Positions 3,507 to 58,201 of a DNA stretch of 64,000 nt are shown in pieces. Source of the DNA: Lachnospiraceae bacterium Zagget2 (lineage in GTDB: Bacteria > Bacillota > Clostridia > Lachnospirales > Lachnospiraceae); assembly GCA_001941045.1 (NCBI GenBank), contig MSHD01000030.1, positions 19,528 to 83,527 on the forward strand. The letters run 5' to 3'. Numbering within the stretch: the first letter of the stretch is position 1; every line of letters starts with the position of its first letter. The position numbers were made by a program, and so were the translations under genes. The notes beneath the pieces are model-generated. The model had not been told where the DNA came from and searched no databases. It was given only the letters and a program-made list of their open reading frames with translations.

Positions 3507-4122
3507 CGATACTCGTCTCCTTCCGGTTGCAGCCCTCGACGAGCGTCGTATTCACATCATCCTCATAAGTACGCATCTGCACTTCAATCGGCGTCGGATC
3601 CTTCGTGATCCGTTTTCCCCCGAAATGATTATAGAAAATAAGGACGCCGGCGGCAATGCCGATGGAATAGGTCAGCTCCAGTACCGTAAAACCGTCTGAA
3701 GGCTGCCCGGTGAGCAGCTCATAGGTGCGCGTAAAGACCTCTGCCACGCCGACGTCGTTATTGAAGGTCATGATCGAAAAGGCAGAGCCGAAGAAAATCA
3801 ACAGGCATATCAGCATGGCCTTAAGCCAGCTCCATCTGTCCTTCGCATAGTCCGGCGATTCATACTCGATGATAAAATCGGACTCGCCCAGATTCTGTAT
3901 CTCCAGATTTGGGTAAACCATGTGAATCAGTTCAATGACCTTCATCACTGAAAAAATATAGCGGTCCGTCTTCTGCGCCTGTATTTTCAGAAGCTTCAAA
4001 CTCTTCAGCCGCGCCTTCACAGCGCTGTCCGTACACTCCAGCTTTGCCACGTCGCCCAGCCGCACCTCCGCGTGGTCCACCTGCACGTTTCGTTCGATCT
4101 TCATATAGAGAATATCGCTCAT
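3496..4122 (-). CDS. spoVAA: Stage V sporulation protein AA
   Basis: FFGSAFSIMTFNNDV, YSIGIAAGVLIFYNHFG and DPTPIEVQMRTYEDD motifs; downstream of sigF. Confidence 0.9.
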   Translation of the reverse strand: MSDILYMKIERNVQVDHAEVRLGDVAKLECTDSAVKARLKSLKLLKIQAQKTDRYIFSVMKVIELIHMVYPNLEIQNLGESDFIIEYESPDYAKDRWSWLKAMLICLLIFFGSAFSIMTFNNDVGVAEVFTRTYELLTGQPSDGFTVLELTYSIGIAAGVLIFYNHFGGKRITKDPTPIEVQMRTYEDDVNTTLVEGCNRKETSIDVD

Positions 4123-52891: not shown

Positions 52892-54415
52892 TTAATACCA
52901 GTCATGCTTTTCATTCCGGTCCAGCGCGTTTATCTGCTCCATCTCCTCATCCGTCAGCTCAAAGCCAAACAGATCGAGATTCTCCCGGATATGCTCCGGA
53001 TCGCTGGAGCCGGGAATGACCACAACGCCTTTCTGCAAATTCCACCGCAGGATTACCTGGGCAGAAGAAACGCCGTGAGCCTCAGCGATGGCGGAAATGG
53101 TTTCATCCCCAAGCAGCTCCGCTGTATGCCCGCGTCCGCCGAGTGGATACCAGCCCTGCACGACAATCCCAAGGGACTGAATGTAGGGAATCACGTCATT
53201 TTCCTGATAATAGGGATGGATTTCGTTCTGCACCAGCGCCGGGGTGATGTTCACCTGCGGAAGAAACTCCTCCAGTTCTTCCACATACCAGTTGGACAGG
53301 CCAATCGAATGCACCTTGCCGTCTGCGACCGCCTGCTCCAGCGCCAGATAGGCCTCCACATCGCCGTCTCCCGGATGATGCAGGAGAATCATGTCGATAT
53401 AGTCCAGCCCCATCTTCTCCAGAGCTTCGTCAATGGCCTCCGCCGCATGGTCAAACTGATTGGGATAGAGCTTGGTAATCACGAAAATTTCTTCCCGCGG
53501 CACATCCGAGTCCCGGACGGCCTGCCCGACCGCCGCCTCATTGCCGTACATATAAGCGGTATCGATCAGCCGTCCACCGGCTTCCAGCAGCGCCGCAATG
53601 GAGACTGCACATTCCTCATCCGTCAGGCTGTAGGTCCCAAGTCCCATGATCGGCATTTCATAGCCGCTGTTCAGCAACACGGTCTTCGTCTCAAAATCAA
53701 ATTCGCCCACACTGCGCACCTCACTTTCCGATAATTCCAGACTGTCTACCCATTCGATCACGTCATTTTCCGTGGCATCCCCGGAGAAGCGCCGCCCCTC
53801 CATCCAGGTGACGGTATCGGCGCAAAGGCTGTGGAGATTTTCAGCGCTGGAGCCGATGCCGCTGCTGTGGGAGGTGCAGAAGGGAATGATCGTCACATCC
53901 GAGAAATCATAGCTCTCCAGAAAGGTGCTGATGATCCGCGGTGCCTCCCCGTGCCAGATGGGATAGCCGAGGAAGATCACGTCGTACTGCCCGATGTTCT
54001 CCACGCTGCCGGAGATCGCGGGCCTTGCAGAGTCATCCGCCTGCTCCTGGTCGGCGCGCCCGCCGGTATAATACGCCAGATCTTCCTCCGTATAAGGATC
54101 CTCCGCTACGATTTCGTAACTGTCCGCACCGGTCTCGTCGATGATCCACCGGGCGATCTGCTCCGTCGTGCCGGTGCAGGAGAAATACGCAACCAGAATA
54201 TTGTCGCCGGAAGAGACGCTGCCGGAATCTTCCCCACTGCTCTCCTCTTCCACTGCACCCGTTTCTTCTGCTTCGCTCTCTGCTTCTGATTGACTTTCCA
54301 CGGCCGAAATAGCGTCGCTTCCAGAATCCGATGATGACTCCGCATTTCCGGAACCACACGCCGCCAGTCCTGTGATCATACAAATCAAAAGAACAAATGT
54401 GATAAATCGCTTCAT
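52892..54415 (-). CDS. Lipoprotein: flavodoxin fused to aldo/keto reductase
   Basis: Lipobox GLAAC; flavodoxin VAYFSCTGTT..FLGYPIWHG; AKR LIDTAYMY, VITKLY, LLHH, IGLSN, VIPGS. Confidence 0.85.
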   Translation of the reverse strand: MKRFITFVLLICMITGLAACGSGNAESSSDSGSDAISAVESQSEAESEAEETGAVEEESSGEDSGSVSSGDNILVAYFSCTGTTEQIARWIIDETGADSYEIVAEDPYTEEDLAYYTGGRADQEQADDSARPAISGSVENIGQYDVIFLGYPIWHGEAPRIISTFLESYDFSDVTIIPFCTSHSSGIGSSAENLHSLCADTVTWMEGRRFSGDATENDVIEWVDSLELSESEVRSVGEFDFETKTVLLNSGYEMPIMGLGTYSLTDEECAVSIAALLEAGGRLIDTAYMYGNEAAVGQAVRDSDVPREEIFVITKLYPNQFDHAAEAIDEALEKMGLDYIDMILLHHPGDGDVEAYLALEQAVADGKVHSIGLSNWYVEELEEFLPQVNITPALVQNEIHPYYQENDVIPYIQSLGIVVQGWYPLGGRGHTAELLGDETISAIAEAHGVSSAQVILRWNLQKGVVVIPGSSDPEHIRENLDLFGFELTDEEMEQINALDRNEKHDWY

Positions 54416-54416
54416 A

Positions 54417-54659
54417 CTACCCCTCCTTTTTGTTCAGCCTGTTTACGAGATAGTCCAGACAGTCCAGCTTTTTCTGCTCCGCATGAATGCAGTTCAGCAA
54501 ATCCCTGCGACTGCTTTGCAGCAGAAACAACAATTCTCTTTCCCGTCCTTCTTTCTTAAGCAGGACACAGCGGGAAATCGTCTCCTCCCCAAAGCCAATG
54601 TCCCTGAGATTTTCATAAAAGCACTGTGCCTCATTGTTCGCTTCCGGCATGTCTGCCAC
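54417..54659 (-). CDS. Small conserved helical protein
   Basis: ENLRDIG..LL..HAEQKKLDCLDYL; RBS GAGGGAGG; first gene after promoter copy B. Confidence 0.7.
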   Translation of the reverse strand: MADMPEANNEAQCFYENLRDIGFGEETISRCVLLKKEGRERELLFLLQSSRRDLLNCIHAEQKKLDCLDYLVNRLNKKEG

Positions 54660-54670
54660 CTCCCTCGAGG

Positions 54671-54744
54671 TCTATCTTATATGGTGACAGAAAGAATGGC
54701 AAATATTTAGTTTCTATTTCTGGTTATTCTCGAAAGGAATATCT
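54671..54744 (-). promoter_or_regulatory. Promoter copy B of a duplicated 74-bp element
   Basis: TTGCCA-N17-TAAGAT with the same upstream motif and identical spacing as 49874-49947. Confidence 0.8.
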
Positions 54745-55121
54745 ATTTGTAACCACCCTTGTCCAGGAAAATCAGGGAGTATATTAGGGCTCTTTCGCCT
54801 GGCAAATAAACTGTTTTACCTTGCGAAACGGGATTATTTTGATATAATACTTAAGGAAAGTATCAGATTCAGAGCAGACGAAAAAAAGCAATTCTGAGAA
54901 AACTCTGAACTGCTCTGAATGTGATTCTTTCCTATTGTACCGGGGAGCGGACGTGTAGCCAAAATATATGGGGATTGAATATTTGTCCCTTCCGCATTTT
55001 GCAGCTCTGGACAGTAAAGCGATGTAGTTACACGTTGTATTTTGCCGATGTGCAAACTGTTTACTGGCGTGCCAACCAGACCCTCTGCTGAGAGTCCGAA
55101 AAAAGTATGAAGTTCCCCTGT

Positions 55122-56271
55122 TTAATTAAGCATGGCAAATGTACGTCCGGCATGGCGCATGGAGCAACAGCCACAGCAGGGACAGGTTCGAATGTCATAG
55201 CCCCACACCAGATTCAGAACCTCACCCATGTTTTTGCCGGTGAGGAGGGAAGAAAATCTCAGGTGTCCCTGTATTCTGACAATGACCTTCAGGTTTTCCT
55301 TCTTGCAGCGGTTGTTCAGGAAGCCGTAATAACGGATCTTCTGGAAACCATGGGGCAGCACATGCATCATCAGCCGACGGATAAATTCTTTATTTTTCGA
55401 TGGTAACTGTTGTTGTTTCGCCGCTCTTGTAGTCCCTGGCAGAAAAAGACACATGGGTCGGGGTAACTGCCTGAATGCGTGAGTTGGTGATGGCGATACG
55501 GTGGGTGTAACGCCCCAGGTATTCAATGGCATTGCCAAAGCCGTTGAAGGTTTCCTTGATGTAAGGACACCAGTCTTTGTGATACAGAGAATCGCGGAAT
55601 TCACTCCAGGTATAGGAATTGCGCAGCTTTTCACAGGATTTTAAAAACAGAAGTTCCTGCGAAACAGCCATCTCCTGGAGATAAGCGAGGAACTTCCCGC
55701 GGAATTTTCTGCCGAGCACTTTGACAGGGATAAAAAACGCATTCTTGGATTTCCGAAGTTTCAGGTCCTTTGTCAGCCCACCGCCTGTGACAATGCAGTG
55801 GATATGCGGGTGGTAATTCAGGTCCTGCCCCCACGTGTGCAGGACCTGGATAATGCCGGGGGTAGCCCCAAGGTATTTCTGGTCGGTGGCGAGCTCCAGA
55901 AGCGTTTCAGCAGCACAGCGGTGCAAAAGGGAATAGAGGCGTTTCTGGTTGGCATAAATCAAAGGGTTCAGCTCTGCAGGGACGGTAAAGACCACATGGA
56001 AGTAAGGAGTGTCAATGATTTCTGACTTTCTGGCGTCGACCCATACTTCCTTGAGGATGGCCTGGCAGTTCGGGCAGTTGCGGTTCCGGCAGGAATTATT
56101 GTGGAATTCCTGGTGGCCGCATTCCCCACAGATGCTGATGTTGCAGCCGAGAGCGCCGGATTTACACTGCATGATAGAATGGGCAGCCTTTTGCTGTACA
56201 CCGGAGGGGTGGAAGGACTGGCAGAAATCATGCCAGCCATAGGAAAATATCTGTTGGATTCTGCCCTGCAT
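55122..56271 (-). pseudogene. IS91-family Y2 transposase, split by a frameshift
   Basis: CGHQEF..SCRNRNCPNCQ zinc motif, HUH YHPHIH, YLGRY, EFIRRLMMHVLP.GF.KIRYYG; extra A in A-run at about 55393-55397. Confidence 0.88.
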
Positions 56272-57137
56272 CAGGAACTCCTCCCCATGGCGGGATGGTC
56301 GAAGGGGCTGACAGCCTTGCCGATGCCATTTCCGGCAAGATGGACATAGATCGTGGTGGAATTCAAAGATTTGTGTCCAAGGAGAGCTTTAATGGTGAGA
56401 AGATCCGTCCCATCCTCGTAGAGGTGTGTGCCAAAGGCGTGGCGGAGGGAATGGCAGGTAATACGCTCCGGCCAGCCGAGGGAACGCTCCACGGCATGGA
56501 TGTGCCAGGAGAGGTAGAACGTGTCAATGGGACGGGATGGGTCCCGCTGCTTCGGGAAAAGCCAGCCCATGGGTTTTCCAAAAGCGAACCAGTACTGTGT
56601 GAGGATGTCAAGTGCATTGGCGGAAAGGATGGCATAACGGTCAGAGCGGTTTTTGCCATGGCAGATATGGATGCGCATGTTTTTACGCTCGATATCCACA
56701 TAGCGGAGATGGCAGAGCTCGCCAATGCGCAGGCCGGAAGAATACATGAGTGCAGTCATGGCTTTCAGCTTCAGGTTCGGCATGGCTTCGATCAGGACAG
56801 CCACTTCCTGTCGGGATGGGACAAAAGGAAGATACTCATCAAACCTGCGCATGGGGAGTTGGGTATCATCCCAGGGTCTGTGCAGGACATACAGGGTGAA
56901 GAAACGCAGTTGGGAGATGACACAGTTAATGGTGCGGTCGGAGAGATTCCTGGAGCGCTGGAGCCAGCGGACAAAGTCACGCAGTTCCGCCCAGGAGACA
57001 TCCTCCGGGGATTTACAGAGGACAGAAGAAAGATAGTCAAGATAAGCACGGATATAAGTGCAATAGCTTATCAGGGTGTGGCCGGTGAGGCCACGCAGGG
57101 AAACCATCTCCCGAAAAACAGTTAAATAATCGTCCAT
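56271..57137 (-). CDS. Tyrosine recombinase (integrase/XerC-like)
   Basis: MYSSGLRIGE, HGKNRSDR, HSLRHAFGTHL, LLGHKSLNSTTIY; RBS AAAGGAG; start reset to MDDYLTV. Confidence 0.92.
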   Translation of the reverse strand: MDDYLTVFREMVSLRGLTGHTLISYCTYIRAYLDYLSSVLCKSPEDVSWAELRDFVRWLQRSRNLSDRTINCVISQLRFFTLYVLHRPWDDTQLPMRRFDEYLPFVPSRQEVAVLIEAMPNLKLKAMTALMYSSGLRIGELCHLRYVDIERKNMRIHICHGKNRSDRYAILSANALDILTQYWFAFGKPMGWLFPKQRDPSRPIDTFYLSWHIHAVERSLGWPERITCHSLRHAFGTHLYEDGTDLLTIKALLGHKSLNSTTIYVHLAGNGIGKAVSPFDHPAMGRSS

Positions 57138-57446
57138 AATAAGAGCTCCTTTGTAATGCTTGCTTTGGGGGAACAGAAAAATAACGCGGGGCAATACAAA
57201 GGTGGTGGACGGATAAAAAAATCAGATATGAGGTTGTTGAGTTTTGAAATCCATGGTAACATAAGCATAGGCAGTTGTTTTGTGTGTTTATCGTTGCATT
57301 AGGGGTAATTCAACAATAAAACATATACAAAAAAACTGCCACTTTTATTTTAAGAAAGAGCAGAAAAATTTATATCCAAGGCTAGCCGTCGCGTTAGCGA
57401 CTTGGTACAATAAAATCAATCCCGCAAATTAAAAGGAGGGCGTTTT

Positions 57447-57689
57447 ATGGACGACAGTGTAAAAGATTTGGCAAATGAAAGAAATTTATTAGATTATATT
57501 GTGGTTTGCGTCAGTGAATTTGCCAGTCGATATGGTATGCATATGAAGGATGCTTATATGTATCTGCGGCAATATAAAGGAATTGATTTTCTCCATGAAT
57601 TCTATGATGTGGAGCATACATTATCTTTTGACGATACAATAGATGATTTGAGTATTATATGCAGAAAAAATGGAGGAACGGTATTTTGA
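57447..57689 (+). CDS. DUF3791-like small protein
   Basis: YIVVCVSEFA..AYMYL..GIDFLHEFYDVEHTLS; RBS AAGGAGG. Confidence 0.72.
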   Translation: MDDSVKDLANERNLLDYIVVCVSEFASRYGMHMKDAYMYLRQYKGIDFLHEFYDVEHTLSFDDTIDDLSIICRKNGGTVF

Positions 57690-58201
57690 AACTTTATCAT
57701 GGCTCCAATATGGAAATAGAATACGTCGATTTATCAAAATGTATGCCCTATAAAGATTTTGGACGTGGCTTTTACACGACAATTCTTGAGGAACAAGCAT
57801 GGAGAATGGCGGAAAGAAGAGCAAGGATTGCTGGCGGAATGCCAACCGTTACGATTTTTGAGGTACCAGAAGATCTGTTAGAAAAAAGCGATATAAACTG
57901 CCGCGCATTTGCTGAAAGACCAAGCGTTGAATGGGCGGTATTTATCAACAATAACCGGAATCGGAAATTTGTGGATATCTCAAGCCCGGAGTGTAATACC
58001 GACAATAAATATGATGTTGTCTCGGGACCAGTTGCAAATGATACTGTAGGACTGCTGATCAGACAATTTTCCAGAGGAACCATAGACGCTGAATATTTAA
58101 AGCGGGAATTTGATTTTGGAAAACTGACGAATCAATACACCTTTCATACTGAGAAAGCACTACGGTATCTGAAAAAGGTGGGTGTTAAATATGACAGATA
58201 A
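57686..58201 (+). CDS. DUF3990-family protein (possible ADP-ribosyltransferase fold)
   Basis: TTG start overlapping upstream TGA; LYHGS, KDFGRGFYTT, YDVVSGPVAND, NQYTFHT. Confidence 0.82.
   Translation: MKLYHGSNMEIEYVDLSKCMPYKDFGRGFYTTILEEQAWRMAERRARIAGGMPTVTIFEVPEDLLEKSDINCRAFAERPSVEWAVFINNNRNRKFVDISSPECNTDNKYDVVSGPVANDTVGLLIRQFSRGTIDAEYLKREFDFGKLTNQYTFHTEKALRYLKKVGVKYDR

Follow-up and report, generated by a model that had tools for sequence, protein, structure and literature searches.

Beside the non-coding end of an IS91-like element in the window analysed here (a 64,000-nt stretch of the genome of Lachnospiraceae bacterium Zagget2), a strong promoter-like sequence faces a long hairpin, and the question is whether the two together specify an RNA encoded by the element, as a preliminary description of the locus had supposed, or whether promoter and hairpin differ in origin and role. 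Element-encoded regulatory or guide RNAs are known from IS200 (art200), IS10 (RNA-OUT), IS110 (bridge RNA) and IS605 (omega RNA). An RNA of that class would have its promoter within the element and yield a detectable transcript; the analysis below places the promoter outside it. The reading that we favour is that the hairpin is the subterminal palindrome of the origin end (oriIS) of a rolling-circle insertion sequence, probably folded in single-stranded DNA (ssDNA), and that the promoter next to it is host DNA.

An IS91-family element with a transposase and a tyrosine recombinase

The element is an IS91-family insertion sequence of 2,563 bp (pos. 54849–57411, genes on the minus strand), with its ori end at 54849 and its ter end at 57411; these limits were taken from the extent of homology and from an empty site. 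It is placed exactly 3' of a host −10 hexamer, and its genes run antisense to the promoter. When one genome per species was scanned, 80 loci with transposases 62–92% identical were recovered, mostly in Lachnospiraceae and other gut Clostridia. Homology across these loci has its limits at ...CTTTCCTTAAGN^ and, on the opposite side, at ^ATTGTACCAAG (a caret marks the boundary); in the transposase-sense orientation the former limit is ...GATACTTTCCTTAAGN, beyond which comes ATTATA-NCAY, and the opposite end of the element begins with ^ATTGTACCAAGTCGCTAGCGCGACGGCTAGC. Many relatives reside on ~2.5-kb contigs, collapsed repeats that start and stop exactly at the element ends. No near-identical DNA was found among E. 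coli genomes or among the plasmids of PLSDB.

The transposase gene (pos. 55122–56271, minus strand, stop at 55122) encodes an IS91-family Y2/HUH enzyme with the Pfam domains Zn_Tnp_IS91 (7.5e-27) and Y2_Tnp (3.8e-42). It is split into two ORFs by a +1 frameshift in a minus-strand A5 run (pos. 55393–55397); removal of one base from this run gives a continuous protein of 382 aa with HPHIH and YLGRY motifs, which matches the NCBIfam equivalog transpos_IS91 with 420 bits against a cutoff of 125. The repaired enzyme thus has the HUH motif, the two catalytic tyrosines and the N-terminal Zn-binding domain of the family. A near-identical copy in public run X1 lacks the extra base; the window's copy is probably non-functional, unless an assembly error introduced the base.

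Upstream of it, a tyrosine recombinase of 288 aa (pos. 56271–57137, minus strand) carries the Pfam Phage_integrase domain and a SAM-like N domain. Its NCBIfam matches are to Xer- and integron-type recombinases, best to XerA/integron-integrase models, and all fall below cutoff; for the two integron integrase models, the scores were 128 bits (cutoff 265) and 64 bits (cutoff 435). The recombinase TGA and the transposase ATG overlap by one base (TGATG, minus strand, pos. 56269–56273), which suggests translational coupling.

In nearly all relatives, the non-coding DNA that follows the transposase gene is conserved. The ORFs between the transposase stop and the hairpin are merely mechanical (73 aa from TTG on the minus strand and 56 aa from GTG on the plus strand) and have no protein family match. 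The preliminary description was therefore right that an IS91-like element with a recombinase/transposase pair is present, that its non-coding end, downstream of the transposase, contains the hairpin and that no credible ORF occupies this stretch. A short block between the transposase stop and an internal inverted repeat (pos. 54967–54975, reverse complement ATCCCCATA) is strongly conserved in nearly all relatives.

The promoter is host DNA and was the target of insertion

The promoter (pos. 54821–54848, plus strand) is of the sigma-A type and comprises a −35 hexamer TTGCGA (pos. 54821–54826), a 16-nt spacer with an extended TG (pos. 54840–41) and a −10 hexamer TATAAT (pos. 54843–54848). With 10/12 matches plus the extended TG, it is the top promoter-like match in the region 54300–57700, although a consensus match by itself is weak evidence in a region where the promoter scan found 9 such sites against 4.4 expected. 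An exact-protein look-up of the neighbouring DUF3791 gene identified a sister MAG contig, L082, that has the same gene neighbourhood as the window without the insertion. This empty site reads ...CCTTGCGAAACGGGATTATTTTGATATAAT^AAAATCAATCC...GAGGAGGGCGTTTTATG and consists of the two flanks of the window joined, with the layout TTGCGA-N16-TGaTATAAT^AAAATC…RBS-ATG(DUF3791); the promoter lies 35 nt upstream of the DUF3791 start codon, which has a good RBS. Because L082 carries the promoter uninterrupted at the DUF3791 locus, the whole TTGCGA-N16-TGaTATAAT sequence, −10 included, is host DNA that served as the insertion target and lies outside the element. A second, independent empty site, GTATGCTATAAT^TTATGATAG, was obtained for the L043 insertion from mouse-gut metatranscriptome contigs that join L043 across the element. 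Both empty sites equal left flank plus right flank with nothing doubled; hence there is no target-site duplication, and the exact junction is ambiguous within the shared AAT^A.

These empty sites bear directly on the earlier proposal, in which a strong promoter borne by the element transcribes a structured RNA encoded by the element. The motif itself is as had been described, a 10/12 match with TG directly upstream of the hairpin, but its assignment to the IS91-like element fails: the TGnTATAAT that adjoins the hairpin is target DNA in both empty sites, both hexamers occur in the uninterrupted sister locus as the promoter of the DUF3791 operon, and the −35 region of other copies is unrelated flank. 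An element-encoded RNA started from the element's own promoter is thereby refuted, and we regard the chance that this reading holds as negligible. Alignment had also suggested TATAAT (reverse complement ATTATA) as the element's own terminus, a candidate ruled out by the same two sites, L082 and L043.

Judged from the layout of L082, the native role of the promoter is to drive the DUF3791/DUF3990 operon, from which the insertion now separates it; the host 5' UTR, the RBS (AAAGGAGGG, pos. 57432–40) and the DUF3791 ATG (pos. 57447) remain on the far side of the element (pos. 57412–57449, plus strand), cut off from their promoter. The host −10 is centred in a 12-bp palindrome (CGGGATTATTTT ga tataat AAAATCAATCCCG; window pos. 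54831–54848 and 57412–57424, joined in L082 at 3947–3978), which is probably an operator of the DUF3791 operon, split by the insertion. A −10 target held in the loop of a host hairpin is not a general rule, since 33 reconstructed empty sites had a mean z of −0.3 and only 4 fell below −2. A divergent promoter-like site (TTGCCA-16-TATACT, 10/12, minus strand, pos. 54778–54805) also lies in host DNA and is conserved in L082; downstream of it are a family-less ORF of 80 aa (pos. 54659–54417) and a 507-aa lipoprotein-like flavodoxin/aldo-keto-reductase fusion (pos. 54415–52892).

Relatives insert behind extended −10 boxes

Comparison of 56 unique insertion sites revealed that exact TATAAT ends the flank in 42 and that 54 have at most one mismatch to it. 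TG stands two bases upstream of TATAAT in 45/56 sites, a purine occupies position −10 in 49/56 and T position −11 in 36/56. The target consensus, TRTGnTATAAT, is well supported by these alignments, and we hold this specificity to be very likely; the motif is the Gram-positive extended −10 or '−16 region'. Hexamers resembling a −35 element are enriched only at a spacer of 16–18 nt, where 20/55 sites have ≥4/6 matches and 7 have ≥5/6, compared with 6–15 and 0–3 sites, respectively, at other spacings. Beyond the ter end, the main ORF runs in the direction of the promoter in 30/34 sites, and an RBS and ATG often follow within 20–200 nt. Because of the −35 enrichment at 16–18 nt and the co-oriented downstream ORFs, the insertions of relatives are taken to sit in genuine promoters, always antisense to them.

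The element's terminal TGGTACAAT takes the place of the displaced −10 in the same register, such that the ter terminus puts a −10-like motif, TGgTACAAT, in register with the host transcription start. It may thus be a putative replacement −10 for the host gene. A bolder model combines these features into an element that homes to promoters with ends mimicking a sigma-A extended −10: integration would occur only behind TRTGnTATAAT of live promoters, the host gene would receive the terminal hexamer as its new −10, and the captured host promoter would fire a hairpin-capped antisense RNA over the transposase, so that host promoter activity would set element activity. With a functional replacement −10 and a functional antisense RNA both included, the model as a whole seems to us decidedly improbable.

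Full-text literature searches found no account of IS91-like or HUH elements that target −10 boxes or promoters. The subfamily is spread through gut Clostridia (Lachnospiraceae, Oscillospiraceae, Catonella, Blautia and Dorea) and lies with near-base precision behind extended −10 boxes. If confirmed, this would enlarge target recognition in the IS91 family from 4 to about 11 nt, provide a testable DNA-pairing model of target reading by a Y2 HUH transposase and explain how promoters can harbour such an element while the gene downstream is not necessarily silenced. For annotation, a TATAAT beside this hairpin is the sign of a host promoter that has been disrupted or re-wired. The hairpin itself is mostly ordinary, an ori-end palindrome expected of an IS91-family element, and promoter homing is the part that merits follow-up.

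At least five copies (L042, L043, L046, L049 and L050) occupy different promoters in one isolate, Dorea sp. 5-2. The element has been recently active in this lineage, because a strain in a mouse-gut metatranscriptome has the L043 site empty. In Catonella morbi (L064, 5403–5450), the ori terminus and part of the target form a 16-nt tandem duplication (CTTTCCTTAGGAATTA twice).

A covarying hairpin at the ori end

The long subterminal hairpin (pos. 54854–54933, plus strand) is set back 5 nt from the ori end of the element, and the intervening single-stranded tail ACTTA (pos. 54849–54853; consensus TCTTA/TCTTAA) lies between the cleavage/junction point and the hairpin foot in alignments and folds. 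Its arms (pos. 54854–54877 and 54910–54933) are 24 nt each, complementary at 22/24 positions and separated by a 32-nt loop; their sequence was not found elsewhere in the window. The ~80-nt stem reported directly downstream of the promoter is therefore present, and it folds far better than shuffled sequences, both as RNA (−35.1 kcal/mol, z = −6.8, 0/200 shuffles) and as DNA (z = −5.8 to −7.4).

An alignment of 58 distinct ori ends (A1), in which 24 stem positions were counted, revealed pairing in 85% of stem cells compared with 32–44% when the partner was slid. Both sides had changed in 12/24 stem pairs, with 97 compensated cells, and 0/500 shuffles reached the observed values, a statistic that overstates independence since the 58 sequences share phylogeny. 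Clear pair switches were GC/UA at 23:105, AU/GC at 24:104 and CG/UA at 37:91, and two mismatches are conserved in the stem, one A.A and the other C.C or C.A. Absence of covariation in homologues had been named as part of what would refute the earlier proposal; the covariation is instead strong, and it supports a folded strand, not specifically RNA. In the long helix, apical pair excluded, G:T-type pairs favour the strand antisense to the transposase gene (35 vs 4), and in the window the hairpin likewise folds more stably on that strand (−22.8 vs −19.4 kcal/mol). The best-pairing strand is the one predicted to be transferred as DNA, and it is also the one that the host promoter would transcribe, so the wobble bias is unable to separate DNA from RNA. 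A more distant element with both genes on an Agathobacter rectalis plasmid (L084, NZ_CP143948.1; 47% aa identity) has an analogous, longer hairpin of different sequence that adjoins a TTTGTTCAAC repeat, and its antisense strand again folds better (−22.7 vs −19.7). By its covariation, its strand bias and this different-sequence analogue, the hairpin is a selected structure, and selection most likely acts on the transposase-antisense strand.

The tip of hairpin arm 1 (AGAGCAGTTC) has an alternative partner, an inner repeat (GAACTGCTCT) followed by a T-run. This second helix is 87% paired among relatives, with covariation, and its wobbles favour the transposase-sense strand (51 G:T vs 20 A:C). 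Because the T-run follows and the wobbles favour the sense strand, the sequence identifies this helix as a predicted intrinsic terminator of the transposase mRNA (pos. 54881–54913, minus strand; stem 54913–54903/54898–54888, T7 at 54887–54881), and the terminator on this other strand accounts for some of the conservation in arm 1. In the direction of the promoter, the long hairpin was rejected as a terminator, there being no U-tract on that side.

The two ends and a proposed transposition structure

Directly after the long hairpin lies an internal inverted repeat (IRR; pos. 54934–54960, plus strand), which begins with ATTGTACC and continues to ...GCGGACGTGTAGCC. It is complementary to the terminus of the ter end, ...GGTACAAT, its ATTGTACC(AAG) being the complement of that terminus, and also to the TATAAT target with one T:G pair. 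At the ter end (pos. 57381–57411, plus strand), a small GC hairpin (GTCGC, pos. 57388–92; GCGAC, pos. 57397–401) is followed by the terminus CTTGGTACAAT^ (pos. 57401–57411), which is target-like and ends 10 nt past the hairpin; an alignment of 60+ ter ends showed covariation of this hairpin (GTCGC/GCGAC, GCCGC/GCGGC, ATCGC/GCGAT and ACCGC/GCGGT variants). By analogy with IS91, the end with the long hairpin was assigned as oriIS because it abuts the conserved target, and the other as terIS because its target-like terminus lies 10 nt after a covarying GC hairpin.

When the two ends or a circle junction were folded, the ter/IRR duplex (8–11 bp) stacked on the long hairpin (z = −7.8 and −9.6), and the junction TACAAT^(A/T)CTTA falls at a 5-nt bulge of the predicted fold. 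A natural abutment of this kind, an RE–LE junction TTAAGA^ATTGTACC, stands at the start of contig L022. There, at positions 1–60, an ori-end arm is joined straight to a ter end (…CTTTCCTTAAGA^ATTGTACCAAATCGC); this represents either a circle junction or a tandem insertion behind the terminal hexamer of another copy.

Of the three roles first offered for the hairpin (an antisense regulator, a structured RNA used by the recombinase/transposase pair and the ssDNA oriIS hairpin), the last fits best, given its ori-end position, its covariation and the ends of IS91-family elements. We infer a course of events in which the Y2/HUH transposase would nick the strand antisense to its own gene (the plus strand of the window) after a TGnTAYAAT motif, namely the host −10 at the ori side and the element's own terminal hexamer at the ter side. 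The hairpin would fold in the displaced single strand or in an ssDNA circle, and the ATTGTACC(AAG) beside it would pair with the ter 3' end, forming one long composite stem that exposes the junction TAYAAT^(A/T)CTTA at the 5-nt bulge. The transposase would recognise this composite structure and then cleave or join it, and the same pairing logic would pick TGnTATAAT targets. The hairpin tip would hold a second job on the other strand, as the terminator of the transposase mRNA together with the inner repeat and T-run. The element may thus transpose by a rolling-circle route via a bottom-strand ssDNA circle, as in the IS91 family; the strand-biased wobble pairs and the RE–LE junction in L022 are indirect signs of such a circle. 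Guide-like pairing is trivially predicted from sequences that are inverted repeats of each other, which could equally be double-stranded protein-binding sites.

Alternative roles of the hairpin

One alternative is a function in RNA. Every insertion puts a host −10 some 6–7 nt ahead of the stem, and the captured host promoter would therefore start an RNA capped by a 5' stem-loop and antisense to the 3' end of the transposase gene, with its 5' end at the first base of the stem (the first G/A), about 7 nt past TATAAT, and, if unterminated, extending antisense across the whole element. Such an RNA would throttle transposase expression or carry transcription into the host gene, and the hairpin would be kept as a 5' stabiliser or structure, a role compatible with one in DNA. 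The constant geometry of the 56 sites (TATAAT, 5–6 nt, stem), the wobble pairs favouring the promoter-transcribed strand and the stability of the RNA fold agree with it, and a sequence scan detected no terminator-like site on the plus strand inside the element. However, ori palindromes also occur in IS91-family members whose targets are not promoters (PMC13181058), so an RNA is not needed to explain the hairpin, and the stems are conserved in sequence beyond what pairing alone would ask. A permissive Rfam search of the stretch returned no family match, only a chance hit to mir-960 (E = 0.87). The element and its junctions are present in mouse-gut metatranscriptome contigs, but these are unstranded and may contain DNA, and the element is multicopy; the copy that they hold, and that yielded the empty site, is of the Dorea type, and the few runs holding the window's copy are none of them RNA. 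We consider a function in RNA unlikely.

The remaining proposals for the hairpin are less likely than an RNA function. As a folded, single-stranded recombination site for the element's tyrosine recombinase, similar to integron attC, it would make sense of an imperfect, strand-biased stem with conserved mismatches lying near a related enzyme: IS91-associated tyrosine recombinases group with an integron-like subgroup (bioRxiv 10.1101/542381), and the best models for this one are of the XerA/integron-integrase type. Those matches are nevertheless all below family cutoff, alignment A1 reveals neither R/L-box-like GTTRRRY/RYYYAAC motifs in the arms nor the R''/L''-L'/R' arrangement of attC, IS91 relatives that lack a recombinase also have ori palindromes, and HUH chemistry alone explains the insertion junctions. 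This leaves the attC-like role very unlikely. It is, if anything, harder still to credit the composite hairpin as a single-strand origin or ssDNA promoter like the sso of rolling-circle plasmids, in which the ter/IRR duplex of the ssDNA circle would rebuild a double-stranded TGGTACAAT −10 from which RNA polymerase primes the complementary strand. The junction fold does make that hexamer double-stranded beside the long stem, and IS91 forms both single- and double-stranded circles, but the double-stranded circles are inactive and only the ssDNA circle integrates (PMC13181058), so conversion is not needed; moreover, no −35-like element is conserved in the stem. Finally, a very stable stem directly downstream of a promoter could be a transcription insulator against read-in from the captured host promoter, yet in the direction of that promoter the stem is followed by AUUGUACC instead of a U-tract, and the T-run belongs to the other strand, as part of the transposase terminator; we give this role hardly any weight. 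The ssDNA oriIS palindrome therefore remains our preferred reading of the hairpin.

Comparison with known rolling-circle and single-strand elements

In IS91, IS801 and IS1294, oriIS carries one or two imperfect subterminal palindromes and terIS carries one beside the cleavage site, and in IS91 the TGA of orf121 overlaps the tnpA ATG by one base (PMC13181058). The element described here shares with them a Y2/HUH transposase with an N-terminal zinc domain, insertion without target duplication, asymmetric ends, an imperfect oriIS palindrome downstream of the transposase (5 nt from the end), a small palindrome at the terIS cleavage site (10 nt away) and a sequence-specific target that abuts oriIS and resembles the ter terminus; the one-base TGA/ATG overlap is shared with IS91. 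It differs from IS91 in protein sequence (about 30% identity) and in its upstream ORF, a tyrosine recombinase in place of Orf121. Unlike in IS91, IS801 and IS1294, the target is not a tetranucleotide (CTTG/GTTC) but an 11-nt TRTGnTATAAT motif (9–11 nt), an internal inverted repeat lies to the inside of the long hairpin, and the hairpin tip doubles as the predicted transposase terminator.

Among other HUH elements, Helitrons such as Helraiser are likewise rolling-circle transposons with a subterminal hairpin about 10 nt from the cleaved end, and the small GC hairpin here, which lies 10 nt from the ter terminus, shares the geometry of their 3' hairpin. In contrast to Helitrons, the long hairpin belongs to the initiation (ori) end and not to the termination end, the element has no helicase domain, and the host is bacterial. 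Members of IS200/IS605 (IS608, ISDra2) apparently offer a parallel in one-strand HUH transposition with imperfect end hairpins and conserved mismatches, in a target equal to the left-end cleavage motif and in a cleavage or target site read by pairing with element DNA beside the hairpin, a pairing that is predicted in the present case. Their enzymes, however, are Y1 transposases of an unrelated family, and their pairing is non-canonical and spans 4–5 nt, compared with the predicted 8–11-nt inverted repeat here. In the A. rectalis plasmid element, a ter-like TTGAACAAAATCGCTGCGCGATGG (pos. 1380–1420) and the ori hairpin (pos. 3810–3930) were located, and the putative terminus motif ...TTTGTTCAAT, in ends predicted from a single copy, is closer to the GTTC of classical IS91 relatives.
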